From positions 2,472 to 66,471 of the forward strand of contig JAICWH010000002.1 in NCBI GenBank assembly GCA_025934895.1: a DNA stretch of 64,000 nt, given 5' to 3'. The notes under the pieces were generated by a model, which had not been told where the DNA came from, did no database searches, and saw only the letters and a program-made list of their open reading frames with translations. Made by a program: the position numbers and the translations under genes. This document shows, in pieces, positions 1,495 through 42,713 of this stretch (the first letter of the stretch is position 1; each line of letters opens with the position of its first letter). This DNA is from Nocardioidaceae bacterium. GTDB taxonomy: Bacteria > Actinomycetota > Actinomycetes > Propionibacteriales > Nocardioidaceae.

Positions 1495-1498
<4 letters not shown>
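1088..1498 (+). CDS. VOC/glyoxalase family protein
   Basis: ASVAFYRDNLGFEV...EPTEQPYGVRDCAFRDPAGNMVRI; ATG at 1088. Confidence 0.9.
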
Positions 1499-3918
<2,420 letters not shown>

Positions 3919-3935: not shown

Positions 3936-3963
3936 ATCGCCGATAATCTACATTATGTCAACT
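3936..3963. other. dif: dif-type XerC/XerD site-specific recombination site
   Basis: ATCGCCGATAA-TCTACA-TTATGTCAACT: 11-6-11 layout; right arm matches the E. coli XerD arm TTATGTTAAAT at 9/11; AT-rich island in very GC-rich DNA. Confidence 0.88.
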
Positions 3964-5837
3964 ACGGGCGGCCGGCAGCGGATGTTCCGGTAGACGTGCA
4001 CGCCGCGGCGCGCGGCGTCCGGGGCCACCGGCAGCTCCAGCAGGAAGCCCCGGTGCAGCTCGGACGCCGCCACGACGTAGCAGTCGGTGGCCGCCGGGAA
4101 CAGGTACATCCACTGCTGTCCGCGGTAGCCGTGGGAGCTGGAGTGGTGCCGGTCCAACCGCGCTGTGGCATGCATCCCGTTCCAGTCCAGCCCGGCGTTG
4201 ATGGCAGTAGCCGGTACACCTGCGTGCGTGAGCCGACGCGCGGCCTCCCACACCGCGTGGTCGCGACGGTCCGTGAGCAAGGTGTTCGTCACCGACAGCG
4301 TCAGCAGGATCGCGGCCAGGGCCGCGGCCACGGCGCCGTACACCAGGTGCGCGGGGCGCAGAGACAGTCCTCCTCCGCCCGCGGCCGAGCTCGCGTCCGG
4401 GGCACGGGCAGCCCTGACCGGGGTCAGCAGCAGCACGGCGAGGCCGGGAAGCATCGGGACGTGGTACCGGTCGACCTGGAACTGTCCTGCCAGGCACAGC
4501 ACCAGACCGAAGCAGGCCAGGAGCCCGGTGTAGGCAGCGAGCATCGTCACCGCCGGGTCCGCGGCCCGGGCCTTGGCGACCGCGGTCCTCGGCGTCCGCG
4601 GCGCACGCGCGCCGATCTCCCCGAGGAGCACGATGCCGGCGACGGCGCCCAGCACCTGGGCGATGTCCCACAGCCAGGGCTCGACCGACGACGGCGCATA
4701 TCCGACGGTGGCGACCCGGAACCCGCCCATGGCGGTGGTGTAGTTCGACAGCAGGACCCGTGGCAGGTGCGGCAGGTGGCCGCCGGCGAGCGCAGCCACC
4801 CCGCACACGCCGAGCACCCAGCCGCAGACCCGGCCTCGACCGGGCCTCCTGCGCCAGCCGTGCATCCGGGGAGGTGCCCCGCGAGCCGACCCGTCCGACG
4901 ACCGGCGCGACCACGCGCGCCACAGCGACCAACCGGACAGTGGCGAGAGGACCAGGCCCAGGGTGTACGGCACGCGCAGACCGCTGCGCCAGGTGCCGGC
5001 CGCGTGCAGACGGAGGCCGAACGGCGGGATGTCGGGGTGCCCGAGCTGGTGCCGCAGCTGCTCCAGGACCACGCAGGCGACCGCAGCGGCCACGGTGGCG
5101 GTCACCGCGAACCGCCGGAACCGCCGCCACCGCGGACCGGTCCCTCCGTGCACCAGGGCCCCGACGAGCACGGCGCCGAGACCGGCGACCGCCTGCTCGC
5201 GGATCGTGAAAGCGACGATCCCGGCCGCGACGGCCAGCAGGAACCGCGGTCTGCTCTGCTCGTCCACGGCCCGCGCAGCGACCAGCACCGTGAGCAGCGA
5301 CATCGCTGCCGCGGGCAGGTCGGTCATGAACGAGCTGGCCAGCAGCGGAAGCCCGGGCCACAGGGCCAGCACGACCGGCACGGCGACGGCACGGGCCGGA
5401 CCGACACACCGTCGGGCGACGGCGAACGCGCACCACATCCACAGTGCGGCGGCCGTGACGCCGTACAGCTTGAGGCTCGCCACGTGGTCCCCGAAGACGG
5501 TCAGGAACGGCTGCGCAGTGGCCAGCTGTCCGACCAGGAACATCTGTCCCCAGCCCTGCAACCGGAGGTGACCGGTGCGGTGCAGGTCGAACGCGGACCG
5601 CATGAAGGACCAGTCGTCGTTCTGTGGCAGCAGGGCTCCGGTGGCCACGCTGGCCACGAACGACGCGGCGGCCACGACGAGGATCACCAGCAGCGTCGCA
5701 CACTCAGGTAGCCGCCCCCGACGGTGAAGCCGCGCCGGTCCCGGGCGCGAGCCCGGCGCGTGGCTCGGAGCGGCCACGGCGATGTCTGCGTGCGCCCTCA
5801 GCGCGCGGGCCGGGTCACCGGCGCTCGTCCGAGGCAC
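3948..5837 (-). CDS. GT-C fold membrane glycosyltransferase (ArnT/PMT-like); start uncertain
   Basis: N-terminal TM followed by PQNDDWSF (acidic pair in first loop) and many TM segments; stop TAG lies inside the dif site. Confidence 0.65.
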   Translation of the reverse strand: MPRTSAGDPARALRAHADIAVAAPSHAPGSRPGPARLHRRGRLPECATLLVILVVAAASFVASVATGALLPQNDDWSFMRSAFDLHRTGHLRLQGWGQMFLVGQLATAQPFLTVFGDHVASLKLYGVTAAALWMWCAFAVARRCVGPARAVAVPVVLALWPGLPLLASSFMTDLPAAAMSLLTVLVAARAVDEQSRPRFLLAVAAGIVAFTIREQAVAGLGAVLVGALVHGGTGPRWRRFRRFAVTATVAAAVACVVLEQLRHQLGHPDIPPFGLRLHAAGTWRSGLRVPYTLGLVLSPLSGWSLWRAWSRRSSDGSARGAPPRMHGWRRRPGRGRVCGWVLGVCGVAALAGGHLPHLPRVLLSNYTTAMGGFRVATVGYAPSSVEPWLWDIAQVLGAVAGIVLLGEIGARAPRTPRTAVAKARAADPAVTMLAAYTGLLACFGLVLCLAGQFQVDRYHVPMLPGLAVLLLTPVRAARAPDASSAAGGGGLSLRPAHLVYGAVAAALAAILLTLSVTNTLLTDRRDHAVWEAARRLTHAGVPATAINAGLDWNGMHATARLDRHHSSSHGYRGQQWMYLFPAATDCYVVAASELHRGFLLELPVAPDAARRGVHVYRNIRCRPPVVDIM

Positions 5838-9034: not shown

Positions 9035-10135
9035 GTGACCTCCACGACCGGCGGCATCGACCCGCCTCCAGCGCCGCGCACCGGAGAACCGGTGCTGGCC
9101 CGTGCCACCCCGTTCCTGCTGGTCGACCTCGAGCTGCTCACCGACAACATCCGCGCGATGGCACGGCTCGCCGCCGACCGGGGGCTGGCGCTGCGACCGC
9201 ACGTCAAGACGCACAAGTGCACACAGGTGGGACGGCTGCAGAAGGAGGCCGGCGCGGTCGGGCTGACGGTCGCCACCGTGGCCGAGGCGGAGGTCTTCGC
9301 CGCGGCCGGGTTCGACGACCTGTTCATCGCCTACCCGCTGTGGGTCGACCCGGCCAAGGGGCACCGGATCCGTGACCTGGCCACCCGAGCCGGCGTGCGG
9401 GTCGGCATCGACTCGCTCGAGGGAGCACGCGCGCTCGCCGCGCAGGTCCCGGGCTGTCCCGTGCTGATCGAGGTGGACTCCGGCCAACACCGCTCGGGGG
9501 TGCAGCCGGCGTCCGCCGGCGTGCTGGCCGAGTGCTCACAACGAGCCGGCCTCGACGTGCGCGGCTTGTTCACGTTCCCCGGCCACAGCTATGCCCCTGG
9601 AGCCGCCGCCACGGTGGCCGCTGAGGAAGCCGCCACCTTGCGTACGGCGGTCGAGTCCCTGGCGCAGCGCGGCATCGAGGCGCACGTGGTCAGCGGTGGC
9701 AGCACCCCGAGCGTGGCGGAGGCGGACGCCGAGGTGCTCACCGAGATCCGGCCGGGGGTCTATCCCTTCGGGGACGCCCAGCAGTGGGAGCTGATGACCA
9801 CGACCCCGGGCCGGATCGCCCTGACCTGCGTGGCCACGGTCGTCAGCCGGGCCGGGGGAAACGTCGTGCTGGATGCCGGCAGCAAGGCGCTCGGTGCGGA
9901 CCGCCCGGGCTACGCGTCCGGGTACGGCCGGCTGCTGGACCATCCCGACGCCCGGGTGGTGCTGCTCGCGGAGCATCACGCGGTGGTGACCTGGGACACC
10001 TCACCGCTCCCGACGCTGGGCAGCCGGCTGCGCGTCGTACCCAACCACGTGTGCACCGCGGTCAACCTCGCCGACGAGCTGGTGCTCCGGGACGGCAGCT
10101 CGTGGCCGGTGGCCGCCCGAGGAGCGAACACGTGA
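9035..10135 (+). CDS. PLP-dependent alanine-racemase-fold enzyme (D-threonine aldolase / D-serine dehydratase DSD1 family)
   Basis: LRPHVKTHK PLP-lysine motif, GGSTP, EIRPGVY, EHH, PNHVC. Confidence 0.88.
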   Translation: MTSTTGGIDPPPAPRTGEPVLARATPFLLVDLELLTDNIRAMARLAADRGLALRPHVKTHKCTQVGRLQKEAGAVGLTVATVAEAEVFAAAGFDDLFIAYPLWVDPAKGHRIRDLATRAGVRVGIDSLEGARALAAQVPGCPVLIEVDSGQHRSGVQPASAGVLAECSQRAGLDVRGLFTFPGHSYAPGAAATVAAEEAATLRTAVESLAQRGIEAHVVSGGSTPSVAEADAEVLTEIRPGVYPFGDAQQWELMTTTPGRIALTCVATVVSRAGGNVVLDAGSKALGADRPGYASGYGRLLDHPDARVVLLAEHHAVVTWDTSPLPTLGSRLRVVPNHVCTAVNLADELVLRDGSSWPVAARGANT

Positions 10136-10631
10136 CCGGGTTCGAGCTCGTGGTGCTCGACTGCGACGGCGTGCTCGTCGACACCGAGCGGCTCACCGTG
10201 CACGTGGAGGCGCGGGTGCTGATCGAGATGGGGTGGCCGCACACCACGCAGGAGGTGGTCGACCGCTGGATGGGACGCTCCTCGGCGGCCCAGCTGGTCG
10301 AGGTCGGTGCGCGGCTGGGGGCCGAGGCCGCTCGCCGCTTCGACGAGGTGATGACGGCCGAGCTGCTCGCGGCGTTGTGCCTCGCGGCAAGCCGGAGCCG
10401 GACCTGTTCCTGCACGCGGCACGCTCCATGGCGGTCGAGCCGTCACGGTGCGCGGTCGTCGAGGACAGCGTCCACGGCGTGCAGGCCGGGGTCGCCGCCG
10501 GCATGACCGTCTTCGGATTCGGCGGAGGGCTCAGCGCACCTGAGACCCTGCAGAGCGCCGGTGCGGTGGTCTTCGAGGCGATGACCGACCTGGCCGACCT
10601 GCTGCTGGTCGACGGCGTGCCGGACTGCTAG
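10132..10631 (+). pseudogene. HAD-superfamily hydrolase with internal deletion and frameshift near 10375
   Basis: Motif I DCDGVLVD in the frame starting at GTG 10132 (GAGGAG RBS); motifs III/IV RGKPEPDLF and VVEDS in a different frame; ~165 codons in total versus ~215-225 typical. Confidence 0.8.
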
Positions 10632-11194
10632 TGGTCGGTCCCGGCGCCCGCTGCGGCCGCCCCCGTCTCGGTGCTCGTCTCCGACGTGACGATCTCGCCA
10701 CCGGCGTTCTCCAGGTGGGCCCGGATGAACCAGTGGAACAGCTCCAGCTTCTCGAGGTGACCGATCAGCATGTCCTCGGTGACCGGGTCGAGGTCGCTGA
10801 TCGTGGCGACGGCGGCGCGGGTCTCCTCGATCACGCCGCGGTAGACCAGGTCCAGTGCGCCGAGGTGCTCCTGGGTGGTGGCCCGGCCGATGCTGTAGTC
10901 GTCCCAGGTGCGCTCGGCGACCAGGGAGCCGGGCGTGCCCTTCGGGGAGCCGCCCAAGGTGGCGATCCTCTCCGCGGTGTCGTCGGCCATCGCCCGCACC
11001 GCGTCCACCTGCGGGTCGATCATCTCGTGCACCGCGATGAAGTGCGGGCCGACGACGTTCCAGTGCACGTGCTTGAGGGTGAGCTGCAGGTCGTTGGTCG
11101 CGTGCAGCCGGGACTGCAGCAGAGCGATGACCTGCTCCGCATCGTCGGTGTCGATGCCGGGAACGGTGTACGTGACCCTACTCGTGGAAACCAT
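10628..11194 (-). CDS. dps: Dps DNA-protection ferritin-like protein
   Basis: LTLKHVHWNVVGPHFIAVHEMID..DDTAERIATLGG ferroxidase signature; ATG at 11194. Confidence 0.93.
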   Translation of the reverse strand: MVSTSRVTYTVPGIDTDDAEQVIALLQSRLHATNDLQLTLKHVHWNVVGPHFIAVHEMIDPQVDAVRAMADDTAERIATLGGSPKGTPGSLVAERTWDDYSIGRATTQEHLGALDLVYRGVIEETRAAVATISDLDPVTEDMLIGHLEKLELFHWFIRAHLENAGGEIVTSETSTETGAAAAGAGTDH

Positions 11195-11779
11195 GGCCCG
11201 CGGGTACCCCGCACCCCCGGAGCGAAACTGCTCGTGCCACTCCGACTGCAGGATCGCGTACTGGTCCTCGTCCGCCCACTCACCCTTGAACAGCTCGTTC
11301 TTCACCAGGTGCGCCTCATGCCGCATGCCGAGCCTGGTCAGCACCGCCGCAGACGCGGCGTTGCGGGCGTCGAGCCGAGCCACCACGCGCCGTAGCCCCA
11401 GCACCTCGAAGGCGAGCTCGAGCAGGTGCCTGGCACCCTCCGTCGCCAGGCCCCGGCCGGAGAAGTCCGGGTGCAGCACGTAGCCGATCTCTCCACCGCC
11501 GTGCTGCACGCTTCGCAGGAACAGCACGAACTCGCCGACCAGACGGCCGCCCGCCTTGTCGAACCCGGCCAGTGTCACGCCGTCGCCGTCCTGCCCGAGG
11601 CGAAGGCTCTGGTGCCGGTCCAGTGCCGTGCGTGAGGCGGTCTCGTCGCGGGTCGCCCACGGCAGGTAGCGCGCCACCTCGGGTCTGCTGTGCAGGTCGT
11701 GGAAGGTCGCGAGGTCGGCCAGGGTGTAAGGACGCAGCAGCATCCGGTCGGTCTCGGCCCGATAGTCGGTGAGATCCAC
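10628..11779 (-). CDS. RimJ/RimL-type GNAT acetyltransferase lacking its own stop codon, reading in-frame into dps (383-aa fusion)
   Basis: GTG at 11779 with GGAGG RBS; LLRPY, EIGYVLHPDFSGRGLATEGA, NAASAAVLTRLGMRHE; no stop before the dps ATG. Confidence 0.8.
   Translation of the reverse strand: MDLTDYRAETDRMLLRPYTLADLATFHDLHSRPEVARYLPWATRDETASRTALDRHQSLRLGQDGDGVTLAGFDKAGGRLVGEFVLFLRSVQHGGGEIGYVLHPDFSGRGLATEGARHLLELAFEVLGLRRVVARLDARNAASAAVLTRLGMRHEAHLVKNELFKGEWADEDQYAILQSEWHEQFRSGGAGYPRAMVSTSRVTYTVPGIDTDDAEQVIALLQSRLHATNDLQLTLKHVHWNVVGPHFIAVHEMIDPQVDAVRAMADDTAERIATLGGSPKGTPGSLVAERTWDDYSIGRATTQEHLGALDLVYRGVIEETRAAVATISDLDPVTEDMLIGHLEKLELFHWFIRAHLENAGGEIVTSETSTETGAAAAGAGTDH
11204..11228 (-). 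promoter_or_regulatory. SigB/SigF-type stress promoter for dps
   Basis: Minus strand GTTT(11228-11225)-N15-GGGTAC(11209-11204), 9 nt before the dps ATG. Confidence 0.72.
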
Positions 11780-11933
11780 GCGCACCTCCCTGGTGTCTGC
11801 TCTCGGGCACTGGTCCCAACCTAGTGCGACCCACCGCCTCGAGCGTTTCGGCCGGGATGCCCGGACATTGACGCAGCAGAGGCCGACGGGGTAGCCGGCA
11901 GCCGCGCCGGTGCCGTGCGCGATGATGCCCCGC

Positions 11934-14048
11934 GTGACCATGTCCTCCCCGGCCCTCGTCGAGCTCGCCCAGACCTACGGCATCGCCACCGGCTACACCG
12001 ACTGGCGTGGCCGCCAGGTCGACGTGCCGGCCGAGGCGGTCACGGAGGTGCTCCGCGCCATGGATGTCGACGTCTCCGACCCGCGGGCCGCTCTCACGCA
12101 CCGGCAGGACGAGGTGTGGCGCCGGATGCTCCCGGCCTGCGTCGTGGTGCGCCGGAGCGAGCAACGGTCGGTGGCCGTGCACGCCCCTCGAGGGGACGCA
12201 CCTCAGCTGCACCTGCGGCTCGAGACGGGCGGCGAGCTGTCGCTGCACCACCAGCAGCCACGCGGCGAAGCCCGACAGGTCGACGGACAGGAGCTCGTCG
12301 AGGTCGCCTTCGAGATCCCGGACGGGCTGCCGCTCGGGTACCACGCGATGCTGGCGCGCTGCGGTGGCCGCGAGGTGGAGGCCACCCTCGTCGTCACCCC
12401 CGACTGGCTCGGCGTGCCCGCGTCGATGGGCGAGCACCGGTCGTGGGGCTTGGCCGCCCAGCTCTACAGCGTGCGCTCGAGGCAGTCCTGGGGGGGCGGC
12501 GACCTGACCGACCTCTGCGACCTCGCCGTGTGGTCCGCGGCCCGGCTCGGCGCCGACTACCTGCTGGTGAACCCGCTGCACGCCGCCGAGCCGGTGGCCC
12601 CGATGGAGCCCTCGCCGTACCTGCCGACGTCGCGGCGGTTCTTCAACCCGCTCTACATCCGGGTCGAGCGCATCCCGGAGTACGTCGACCTGCCGGCCGC
12701 CGACCGCGCAGCCGTCGAGGACCTGGCCCACGGCGTGCACACGAAGCTCGACGGGGCCGACGTCATCGACCGGGACACCTCGTGGACGGCCAAGCGCGCG
12801 GCCCTGCGTCTCGTGCACGACGTCCCCCGCTCGGCCGGCCGCGAGGTCGACTTCCGCGCCTACTGTGCCCGGCACGGCTCGGCCCTGCGGGACTTCGCGT
12901 TGTGGAGCGTGATCGCGAGCGACCACGGCAGCGACTTCCGCACCTGGCCGCACGAGCTGCAGGACGTGGCCTCCCCGGAGGTGGCGGACTGGGCCGTCGG
13001 GCACGCAGCGGACCTCGGGTTCGAGATGTGGCTGCAGTGGGTGCTCGACGAGCAGCTCCAGACCGCGCAGGCCAAGGCCGTCGCCGCGGGCATGTCGCTG
13101 GGCACGATGCACGACCTCGCGGTGGGCGTGCACCCCGGCGGAGCCGACGTCTGGCGGCTGAAGTCGACGTACGCCTCGGGGATCCAGGTCGGCGCCCCGC
13201 CGGACCCGTTCAACCAGGTGGGGCAGAACTGGAGCCAGCCGCCGTGGCGGCCCGACCGCCTGCAGGAGCTGGGCTACGCGCCGTTCCGCGACCTGATCGC
13301 CGCCGTGCTCCGACACTCGGGCGGGGTCCGCGTCGACCACATCATCGGGCTGTTCCGGCTCTGGTGGATACCGGAGGGTCGGCCGCCCTCGGAGGGCACC
13401 TACGTGCGTTACGACCACGAGGCGATGATCGGCGTGCTGGCCCTCGAGGCGCAGCGCGCCGGTGCGGTCGTTGTCGGGGAGGACCTCGGCGTGGTCGAGC
13501 CCTCCGCCCGTGAGTACCTCGCCTCCCGCGGTGTCTTCGGCACCTCGATCCTGTGGTGGGAGCGCGATGAGGAGGGTCGGCCGCTCCCGGCGGAGAGGTG
13601 GCGCGAGTACGCCATGGCCTCGGTCACCACCCACGACCTGCCGCCGACCGCCGGGTACCTGACCGGGGAGCACGTCAAGCTCCGTGACCGGCTGGGGCTG
13701 CTCACCCGGCCGCTGGCGGAGGAGGCCGCGGCCGACGACGAGGAACGCGAGTCGTGGCTGGGCGAGATCCGCGCACGTGGCCTGCTGCCGGACGAGGCGG
13801 GCATCGAGCGGACCGTCGAGGCGCTGCACCGCTACCTCACGCTGACCCCGGCCCGGCTGCTGTGCGTGGCCCTCACCGACGCGGTCGGCGACCGGAGGAC
13901 CCAGAACCAGCCGGGCACGACGGACGAGTACCCGAACTGGCGGGTGCCGCTGTCCGGACCCGACGAGCGGCCGCTGCTGCTCGAGGACGTGCTGGAGTCG
14001 GCTCGGGCAACTCGGCTCGCCGGCGTCGTGCAGACCCCCGCCGACTGA
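11934..14048 (+). CDS. malQ: 4-alpha-glucanotransferase (amylomaltase, GH77)
   Basis: WGLAAQLYSVRS, SPYLPTSRRF, HDLAVG, GAPPDPF, RVDHIIG, VGEDLG, TTHDLP, QNQPGT..YPNWR. Confidence 0.95.
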   Translation: MTMSSPALVELAQTYGIATGYTDWRGRQVDVPAEAVTEVLRAMDVDVSDPRAALTHRQDEVWRRMLPACVVVRRSEQRSVAVHAPRGDAPQLHLRLETGGELSLHHQQPRGEARQVDGQELVEVAFEIPDGLPLGYHAMLARCGGREVEATLVVTPDWLGVPASMGEHRSWGLAAQLYSVRSRQSWGGGDLTDLCDLAVWSAARLGADYLLVNPLHAAEPVAPMEPSPYLPTSRRFFNPLYIRVERIPEYVDLPAADRAAVEDLAHGVHTKLDGADVIDRDTSWTAKRAALRLVHDVPRSAGREVDFRAYCARHGSALRDFALWSVIASDHGSDFRTWPHELQDVASPEVADWAVGHAADLGFEMWLQWVLDEQLQTAQAKAVAAGMSLGTMHDLAVGVHPGGADVWRLKSTYASGIQVGAPPDPFNQVGQNWSQPPWRPDRLQELGYAPFRDLIAAVLRHSGGVRVDHIIGLFRLWWIPEGRPPSEGTYVRYDHEAMIGVLALEAQRAGAVVVGEDLGVVEPSAREYLASRGVFGTSILWWERDEEGRPLPAERWREYAMASVTTHDLPPTAGYLTGEHVKLRDRLGLLTRPLAEEAAADDEERESWLGEIRARGLLPDEAGIERTVEALHRYLTLTPARLLCVALTDAVGDRRTQNQPGTTDEYPNWRVPLSGPDERPLLLEDVLESARATRLAGVVQTPAD

Positions 14049-41453: not shown

Positions 41454-41915
41454 GTCGCCACCGCGAGATGCGTTGCCTGGGTGAGGGGTGTCGCGAGGCG
41501 CTTCTAGACCATTCCCAGGCATGGGGAGCCACCCAAGATCGACATCAACCGGGGACGGTACCCCGGCACTGAGGAGTACGTGCGGCACGCCGAGCGTCAG
41601 AGGACGAACCGGGCCTCGGTCAGCCAGGTCCCCGACTTGGCCGCCTCGGTCCTGTTCGGGCCCGCGACCGTGGGCATCCACGGCACCCGGCTCGGCCGCT
41701 CCCACGTCGACCAGATCGCCGCGGCGACCACGCTCGTCTGGTCACCACAGTCGAACCCGCGGGCGTACGACGAGACACCGACATCGGTCCCGCGCTGCCG
41801 GTCCGGATGCAGGTCTCCGTGGGCTCGGATGCCGTCGGTCCGATCTTCGCTTGGGATCCCCGGTCTAGCGGCGGTCGCCGCCGGCGTTGACGGGCGCCCC
41901 TTCGGAGAGTATGCC

Positions 41916-42713
41916 ATGCATATGACGCAAATGTCCCGATTGCTGGTCGTGTCCGTCCTCCTGGGCACAGCATCCCTCGCTGCGGCTTCGTCGCTACTGC
42001 CGGCGCCGGCCTCCGCTGCCTCTCCGCCTCCGTGCACGATCACGGGCACCCCCGGTGACGACGTCATCACCGGCACCAGCGGCAAGGACGTCATCTGTGG
42101 GCTGGGAGGCAACGACCGGTTGTACGGCGGGCCCGGGGCCGACATGCTCCGAGGGGGGCCCGGAGACGACCAACTCTTCGGGGGCCCGGGAGATGACACG
42201 ATCAACGGCGACGACGGCTTCGACAACATCTTCGGCGGAAACGGCAACGACCACATGTATGGCGGAGCCGGTGGCGACACCTTCTTCGCCACCCGCGGGT
42301 CCACCCCGGGCAGCGTGGCTGACGGGCATGACGTGATGAGCGGGGGGCCGGACTCGGACACGGTCCGCTACGCCCAGCGTCTGACGGGTGTCCGGGTGAC
42401 CCTGGACGGCCTCGCCAACGACGGTGCACCCGGCGAGAACGACCAGGCCGGCGTAGCCACGACCACCTCCGGGTCGGACGTCGAGAACGTCGACGGAGGA
42501 GACGGCAATGACGTCATCGTCGGCACGGACGGACCCAATGTCCTGGTGAGCCGTGCAGGTTCCGACACCATCACGGGTCTCGGCGGTGACGACACGATCG
42601 ACACCTTGGACCGCACCGGTGACGACACTGTCAACGCCGGCACGGGTCAGGACTACTGCGCGGTGGACCTGACCGATGCCCTGACGAGCTGCGAGACGGT
42701 CTTCTCGGGATAG
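41916..42713 (+). CDS. Secreted RTX-type calcium-binding repeat protein
   Basis: Signal-peptide-like N-terminus ending PASA-A; repeated GGxGxD nonapeptides; Cys pair at the ends (PPCT, DYCA..SCE); start may be 41916 or 41922. Confidence 0.85.
   Translation: MHMTQMSRLLVVSVLLGTASLAAASSLLPAPASAASPPPCTITGTPGDDVITGTSGKDVICGLGGNDRLYGGPGADMLRGGPGDDQLFGGPGDDTINGDDGFDNIFGGNGNDHMYGGAGGDTFFATRGSTPGSVADGHDVMSGGPDSDTVRYAQRLTGVRVTLDGLANDGAPGENDQAGVATTTSGSDVENVDGGDGNDVIVGTDGPNVLVSRAGSDTITGLGGDDTIDTLDRTGDDTVNAGTGQDYCAVDLTDALTSCETVFSG

Follow-up and report, generated by a model that had tools for sequence, protein, structure and literature searches.

The 28-bp sequence at positions 3936-3963 of the plus strand of the window (the whole 64,000-nucleotide stretch analysed here) is very probably the single dif site of its chromosome, which would mark the replichore junction in the terminus region and, judged by homology, would serve the resolution of chromosome dimers by XerCD and FtsK. 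This reading is directly supported by the match in sequence, the uniqueness of the site, its conservation and synteny, the switch of motif polarity and GC skew, and the presence of the enzymes; binding by the recombinases, their assignment to the two arms, the dependence on FtsK and recombination itself are what we infer by analogy. The window comprises positions 2472-66471 of C219, a 73.5 kb contig of a draft assembly (3.91 Mb, 247 contigs, 70.9% G+C, 99.9% complete by marker genes), and the site lies 6.4 kb from the left end of this contig.

Architecture and relation to known dif sites

Read directly, the site is ATCGCCGATAA-TCTACA-TTATGTCAACT (G000:C219:6407-6434), i.e. two imperfectly inverted 11-bp arms that flank a 6-bp centre, with the core ATAA-N6-TTAT expected of a dif layout; the 11-6-11 XerCD site proposed in the original prediction is thus exactly what the sequence contains. 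By analogy with Escherichia coli dif, the left arm (3936-3946, plus strand) would be bound by XerC and the right arm (3953-3963, plus strand), which is assigned by its identity to the E. coli counterpart, by XerD, and the intervening TCTACA (3947-3952, plus strand), delimited by direct reading and by the alignment of relatives, would be the region of strand exchange. The E. coli site itself, GGTGCGCATAATGTATATTATGTTAAAT, consists of the XerC arm GGTGCGCATAA and the XerD arm TTATGTTAAAT around its centre, and 19 of its 28 bases are identical to those of the present site; 9 of the 11 XerD-arm bases agree, whereas the XerC arm has diverged here to 6 of 11.

Much closer to home is the predicted actinobacterial dif of Frankia alni, which is said to stem from work by Hendrickson and Lawrence in 2007. 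This proposed site, CACGCCGATAATGCACATTATGTCAAGT, is quoted by Kono et al. (2011; PMC3025954), who predicted dif in 66 of the 66 actinobacterial genomes that they analysed. It has 23 of 28 bases in common with the present site, including the invariant CCGATAA and ACATTATGTCAA, in the same 28-bp 11-6-11 layout, and it differs at the two outermost bases of the XerC arm, at two central bases and at one outer base of the XerD arm, which is ordinary variation between genera. Like the predicted actinobacterial sites, the present one is single-copy and lies at a switch of motif polarity; to judge from its relatives and from synteny-ordered flanks, it would also lie at the change of skew, roughly opposite oriC (for details, see below). 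Since, in addition, all 22 of its arm bases equal those of several same-genus sites, it conforms to the phylum-specific consensus, and the element is of an already known kind.

The dif site of Mycobacterium tuberculosis, TAAGCCGATAA GCGACA TTATGTCAAGT, as taken from primers spanning excisable dif cassettes (PMC5364183), is identical to the present site at about 22 of 28 positions; the arm cores are the same, but the centre here is TCTACA instead of GCGACA. Endogenous XerCD excises dif-flanked cassettes in M. tuberculosis, BCG and M. smegmatis (PMC5364183, PMC4789726, bioRxiv 10.1101/758037), and this Xer-cise marker excision is experimental support for such sites in Actinobacteria.

Could the site be a mere AT-rich palindrome that arose by chance, or else a local operator or terminator between convergent genes? 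It is indeed partly palindromic, and it does lie between convergent genes, namely between the stop of a plus-strand uvrA-like gene (ending at 3918) and the 3' end of a minus-strand open reading frame (ORF) encoding a GT-C glycosyltransferase. However, a search for the arm pattern CGCCGATAA-N6-TTATGTCAA that tolerated three mismatches gave one match in the window and none in 100 dinucleotide-preserving shuffles (0.00 expected); the arms are kept throughout the phylum while the flanking DNA and the neighbouring genes vary, and neither the G+C-rich stem nor the T-run of an intrinsic terminator is present. The probability of this explanation is therefore practically negligible. The AT-rich island that the site forms within DNA of 71% GC is, by contrast, explained by the presence of dif.

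Copy number and conservation among relatives

The 28-mer occurs once in the whole 3.91 Mb assembly even when up to eight substitutions are tolerated, so that the genome-wide count suggested along with the original prediction returned a single copy, and no better dif match emerged anywhere else in this draft genome. Among relatives, the arm pattern (up to two mismatches) was detected in 20 of the 24 genomes from the genus and in the majority of those from three further families of the order, nearly always as one copy per genome; the reversed control pattern was found in 0 of the 24 same-genus genomes and matched once in all 41 genomes. An exact match to the 22-mer containing TCTACA is found, once in each record, in at least 119 other species, all of them Actinomycetota, with Lentzea, Arthrobacter, Nocardia, Rhodococcus, Mycobacterium and Citricoccus among its carriers.

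In an anchored alignment of 13 sites from the genus and 12 from the order, conservation ended at the edges of the 28 bp and the flanks were unrelated. The XerC arm is identical in eight genomes (G005, G024, G003, G001, G009, G016, G013 and G020), and TTATGTCAA is invariant in all 13 of the same-genus sites compared. Within the site, variation is greatest in the first half of the centre (three bases); the genus centre is GCGACA in 9 of 13 genomes, as in M. tuberculosis, TCTACA here and TCTGCA in the closest metagenome relative, and of the six bases only the second half, ACA, is kept in the genus. Recombination between the dif sites of two different species is therefore improbable.

The position of the site is conserved as well. 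At 12 same-genus loci, its orientation relative to the same flanking genes is kept, with a UvrA paralogue and its upstream genes on the XerC side and a sulfatase gene, an alanine-racemase-like gene, a gene for a GNAT-ferritin protein and malQ on the XerD side, and variable DNA inserted directly beside dif. One genome, G020, carried two copies of dif and at first sight resembled a case of an integrative mobile element exploiting Xer (IMEX), but these proved to be overlapping contig ends and hence an assembly artefact: G020:C11:1-6364 and G020:C12:1-6359 overlap end to end as reverse complements with 99.6% identity over 6.36 kb, and dif lies inside the overlap, which leaves one copy in every same-genus genome that has the pattern. 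In six genomes (G012, G005, G001, G002, G016 and G009) the XerD arm is followed on its right, at a distance of 5-10 bases, by a GGAGAG-like word, which may be a ribosome-binding site of a conserved neighbour gene, or nothing; it is absent here because the glycosyltransferase block occupies that place.

Neighbouring genes and the species-specific block

The gene that reads towards dif from the left (1495-3918, plus strand) encodes a UvrA paralogue of 807 amino acids, which scores 684 bits against TIGR00630, below the cut-off of 729.8, and has the Pfam domain ABC_tran. It adjoins dif in most same-genus genomes; in G012 there was no match to it within 10 kb of dif. The one GGGGGAG copy near dif that points the 'wrong' way lies within this gene.

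On the right, the ORF for the GT-C (PMT_2-like) glycosyltransferase (3948-5837, minus strand; about 577 amino acids when counted from the start that homologues favour) overlaps the XerD arm and the centre of dif with its last five codons (VVDIM) and its TAG (3950-3948). The idea that dif truncates this protein was dismissed: its conserved part ends at YRNxRC, before dif, and the tails of the homologues vary from 0 to 12 residues, so that the overlap touches only the variable tail. An ORF that enters AT-rich dif from DNA of 71% GC meets a stop, and the overlap therefore needs no special explanation. A search of 40 relatives found the glycosyltransferase in none of them, and its family is a rare one, with only 17 homologues in a large protein database. 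A homologue of 93% identity is found in the same gene order on one metagenome contig (L211:6001-7734), whose dif is ACCGCCGATAA TCTGCA TTATGTCAACC and where the glycosyltransferase gene stops at a TGA of the XerD arm. Together with an ORF of 118 amino acids without a Pfam match, the gene makes up a species-specific patch of 2.5 kb directly to the right of dif, the GC3 of which (0.89-0.92) is like that of the rest of the genome.

Beyond this patch, the window contains mainly core genes (the gcvP/MerR/bifunctional nuclease/FHA/gcvH cluster, sbcCD, malQ, fdhD, tldD/pmbA) and other ordinary ones (acyl-CoA carboxylase subunits, an ABC exporter pair, sigma and anti-sigma factors), and no integrase, transposase, phage or plasmid genes were seen in it. 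The suggestion that a terminus location would explain accessory content nearby has thus largely fallen away, with the single 2.5 kb patch as its remainder. Two further genes may be recorded. One ORF (10628-11941, minus strand) combines GNAT acetyltransferase and ferritin/Dps domains, a fusion that is no error of this assembly because the same two-domain call (385 amino acids) was obtained at L211:236-1393 of the metagenome contig. The other (41580-42713, plus strand) encodes an RTX-repeat protein (HemolysinCabind, six stretches) and is the lone plus-strand gene in a long run of minus-strand genes.

The fragmentation of the assembly into 247 contigs and the abutment of the 2.5 kb species-specific block on the XerD arm could be taken to mean that the 28-mer is only a secondary dif-like site, i.e. 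an IMEX attachment site or a plasmid-derived pdif, and that the true dif fell into an assembly gap. This appears most improbable. No other match exists in an assembly that is 99.9% complete by marker genes; by synteny, the site is the orthologue of the sole dif in each of 12 genomes of the genus, where the contigs that carry it reach 2.9 Mb, and it is located at the switch of motif polarity described below. An IMEX would be expected to lie between dif and a second, often degenerate, dif-like site and to carry genes of phage, plasmid or island type, and neither was found: no second dif-like site in the window rose above chance (three sites with eight arm mismatches versus 2.35 expected), and none was located at the block boundary. 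With no second dif-like site, integrase or transposase detected, an IMEX or plasmid origin is unlikely, and C219 is collinear with contigs of 2.5-2.9 Mb of three relatives, which speaks against a pdif on a plasmid replicon.

A more specific variant concerns the block rather than the site. The block might be an IMEX-like cassette, lacking a recombinase of its own, that Xer once integrated at dif and whose second site was later lost to decay. Such a history is highly unlikely; if it were nevertheless true, the centre TCTACA (and TCTGCA in the sole close relative that shares the block), as opposed to the GCGACA of the genus, would represent a scar or a barrier to further events.

Converging motifs, GC skew and the replichore junction

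If the 28-mer is the single dif of the chromosome, as argued above, polar sequence motifs should converge on it. The architecture-imparting sequences (AIMS) of actinobacteria reportedly originate from work by Hendrickson and Lawrence in 2006. As published, they read G(A/T/C)GGGGGA and (T/C)GGGGGAG, and they have been used to place dif in Corynebacterium genome papers (PMC3219685). In three same-genus genomes (G012, G005 and G024) that have the site on contigs of 2.5-2.9 Mb, the flanking 200 kb in either direction were scanned de novo and without supervision for 8-mers that change their preferred strand there; the scan returned at its top CGGGGGAG (169:8) and TGGGGGAG (106:3), followed by overlapping words, with 95-97% of the copies on the strand that points to dif. 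The most skewed octamers of the scan are identical to the published AIMS, of which no description for this genus was found in the literature, and here too the polarity switch coincides with dif. Since the scan assumed a switch at dif, the choice of motif is not independent of it; what is independent of this assumption is the localisation on the kilobase scale within 400 kb, the match to the published motifs and the test in the genome itself. For GGGGGAG, the maximum-score switch intervals relative to the site were (-1044,+812), (-787,+1536) and (-2665,+1398), and dif lies inside all three.

In the genome under study, 11 GGGGGAG motifs on the minus strand, pointing leftwards to dif, and 2 on the plus strand lie to the right of the site in C219 (6587-50669 of the window; contig positions 9058 to 53134, from which window positions follow by subtracting 2471), and 1 forward and 1 reverse motif lie to its left. 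Alignment of all contigs to the three reference regions gave one consistent order, namely C245(-), C238(+), C102(-), C243(+), C217(+), C133(+) and C219(+), followed on the right by C189(-), C57(+) and C107(+); the left side of this scaffold relies on a contig order inferred from synteny with relatives. The ratio of forward to reverse motifs is 25:4 in the left 140 kb and 3:22 in the right 144 kb (Fisher p = 5e-8), and the best switch interval, from -4.8 to -2.0 kb at a resolution of about 5 kb, is compatible with dif and offset from it because one reversed motif lies inside the gene of the UvrA paralogue. Motif convergence on the site is thus seen in all three relatives and in the scaffold, and the polarity switch anticipated by the original prediction is located where it should be.

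Within about 200 kb of dif, (C/T)GGGGGAG is 86-97% polar (G012, G005 and G024, as well as contigs C238, C102, C243, C219, C189, C57 and C107 of the genome itself). Within contigs genome-wide, the purity of GGGGGAG is 75%, versus 63% under the null, and it reaches 86-88% near the terminus; the lower polarity far from the terminus fits the known rise of KOPS/AIMS skew towards dif. The contig that carries dnaA, which is not C219, holds too few GGGGGAG motifs to show the opposite switch. As a whole, GGGGGAG is under-represented, with 702 copies in 3.9 Mb versus roughly 2,200 expected by our own estimate from base composition.

GC skew tells a similar, if fainter, story. Within C219 it is -0.020 to the left of dif and -0.011 to the right; no switch of sign is visible because only 6.4 kb (three genes) lie on the left and power is too low, for which reason the comparison within the contig was replaced by synteny scaffolding. 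In the scaffold, the left flank has a skew of +0.0086 and the right flank one of -0.0067 (both deviate from zero by about 2.5 standard deviations), and in the three same-genus genomes the left/right values are +0.009/-0.007, +0.017/-0.005 and +0.013/-0.012, so that the sign changes in three out of three. The switch of GC skew proposed as a check is thus seen at the site in relatives and on the synteny-ordered flanks, albeit weakly, with an amplitude of only about 1%. The remark that gene orientation is consistent with converging replichores roughly holds by GC3-based gene calls: all three genes on the left are on the plus strand, and of those on the right 28 are on the minus and 16 on the plus strand, mostly plus between 9 and 25 kb and mostly minus between 25 and 58 kb.

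Five genomes of the order consist of a single contig, and in these the site lies away from dnaA by 50% (G030), 52% (G032), 50% (G038), 48.5% (G028) and 41.5% (G026) of the chromosome, values that carry an uncertainty of about 1% because genome sizes were rounded. Taken with the motif polarity and the weak change of skew, this position opposite dnaA in relatives supports the original view that the window marks the chromosome terminus.

Does the site also mark the point at which the forks actually meet? It is conceivable that it is a genuine dif that marks the replichore junction for the purposes of segregation, and that the forks meet tens of kilobases away from it. The cumulative GC-skew maxima of the three same-genus genomes, at -73, +74 and +44 kb from dif, could be read in this manner, and a skew amplitude of only about 1% leaves room for it. 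These maxima, however, fall on both sides of dif, and between dif and the maxima the cumulative curves hardly change, a picture compatible with noise; the motif polarity flips within 1-3 kb of dif in all three relatives, so that the prospect of a switch far away from the site, which would have spoken against the terminus, did not materialise; and, according to published analyses, most bacteria terminate replication near dif (PMC3025954). Fork convergence at a distance from dif is accordingly judged unlikely.

Enzymes and a model of dimer resolution

The genome encodes the cognate proteins. XerD (C189:14909-15808) scores 332.3 bits against TIGR02225 (cut-off 329.6). A XerC-like paralogue on C104 has its best match to TIGR02224 with 306.5 bits, below the equivalog cut-off of 335, and passes NF001399; an FtsK with a gamma domain is encoded on C49 (FtsK_gamma, 85.6 bits). 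Synteny with three relatives puts xerD on the right replichore, at a distance of only about 130-180 kb from dif.

The present system thus resembles the XerCD-FtsK-KOPS system of E. coli in its architecture, its two Xer paralogues, its FtsK with a gamma domain and its converging G-rich polar motifs, and it differs in the motif itself, which is (C/T)GGGGGAG here and GGGNAGGG in E. coli. No experimentally defined actinobacterial KOPS was found in the literature, where recent papers on mycobacterial and corynebacterial FtsK cite only the E. coli motif; by analogy, FtsK-gamma may be expected to read (C/T)GGGGGAG. Judged by homology to the systems of E. coli and mycobacteria, ATCGCCGATAA on the left would be bound by XerC and TTATGTCAACT on the right by XerD. 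In a chromosome dimer, the two sister copies of dif would meet at the division septum, where FtsK would translocate along the DNA in a direction set by the GGGGGAG-type octamers that converge on dif, and would activate XerD. Two sequential pairs of strand exchanges across TCTACA would then resolve the dimer into monomers.

Implications

What is known about Xer recombination is left unchanged by these findings; their value lies in what they say about this chromosome and its relatives. The replichore junction of a fragmented draft genome becomes fixed, and at least ten contigs (about 285 kb) can be oriented around the terminus. Moreover, the published actinobacterial AIMS octamers hold in this genus of Nocardioidaceae and locate dif to within 1-3 kb, which makes AIMS a cheap terminus finder for draft actinobacterial genomes in which GC skew, at about 1%, is too weak to serve.
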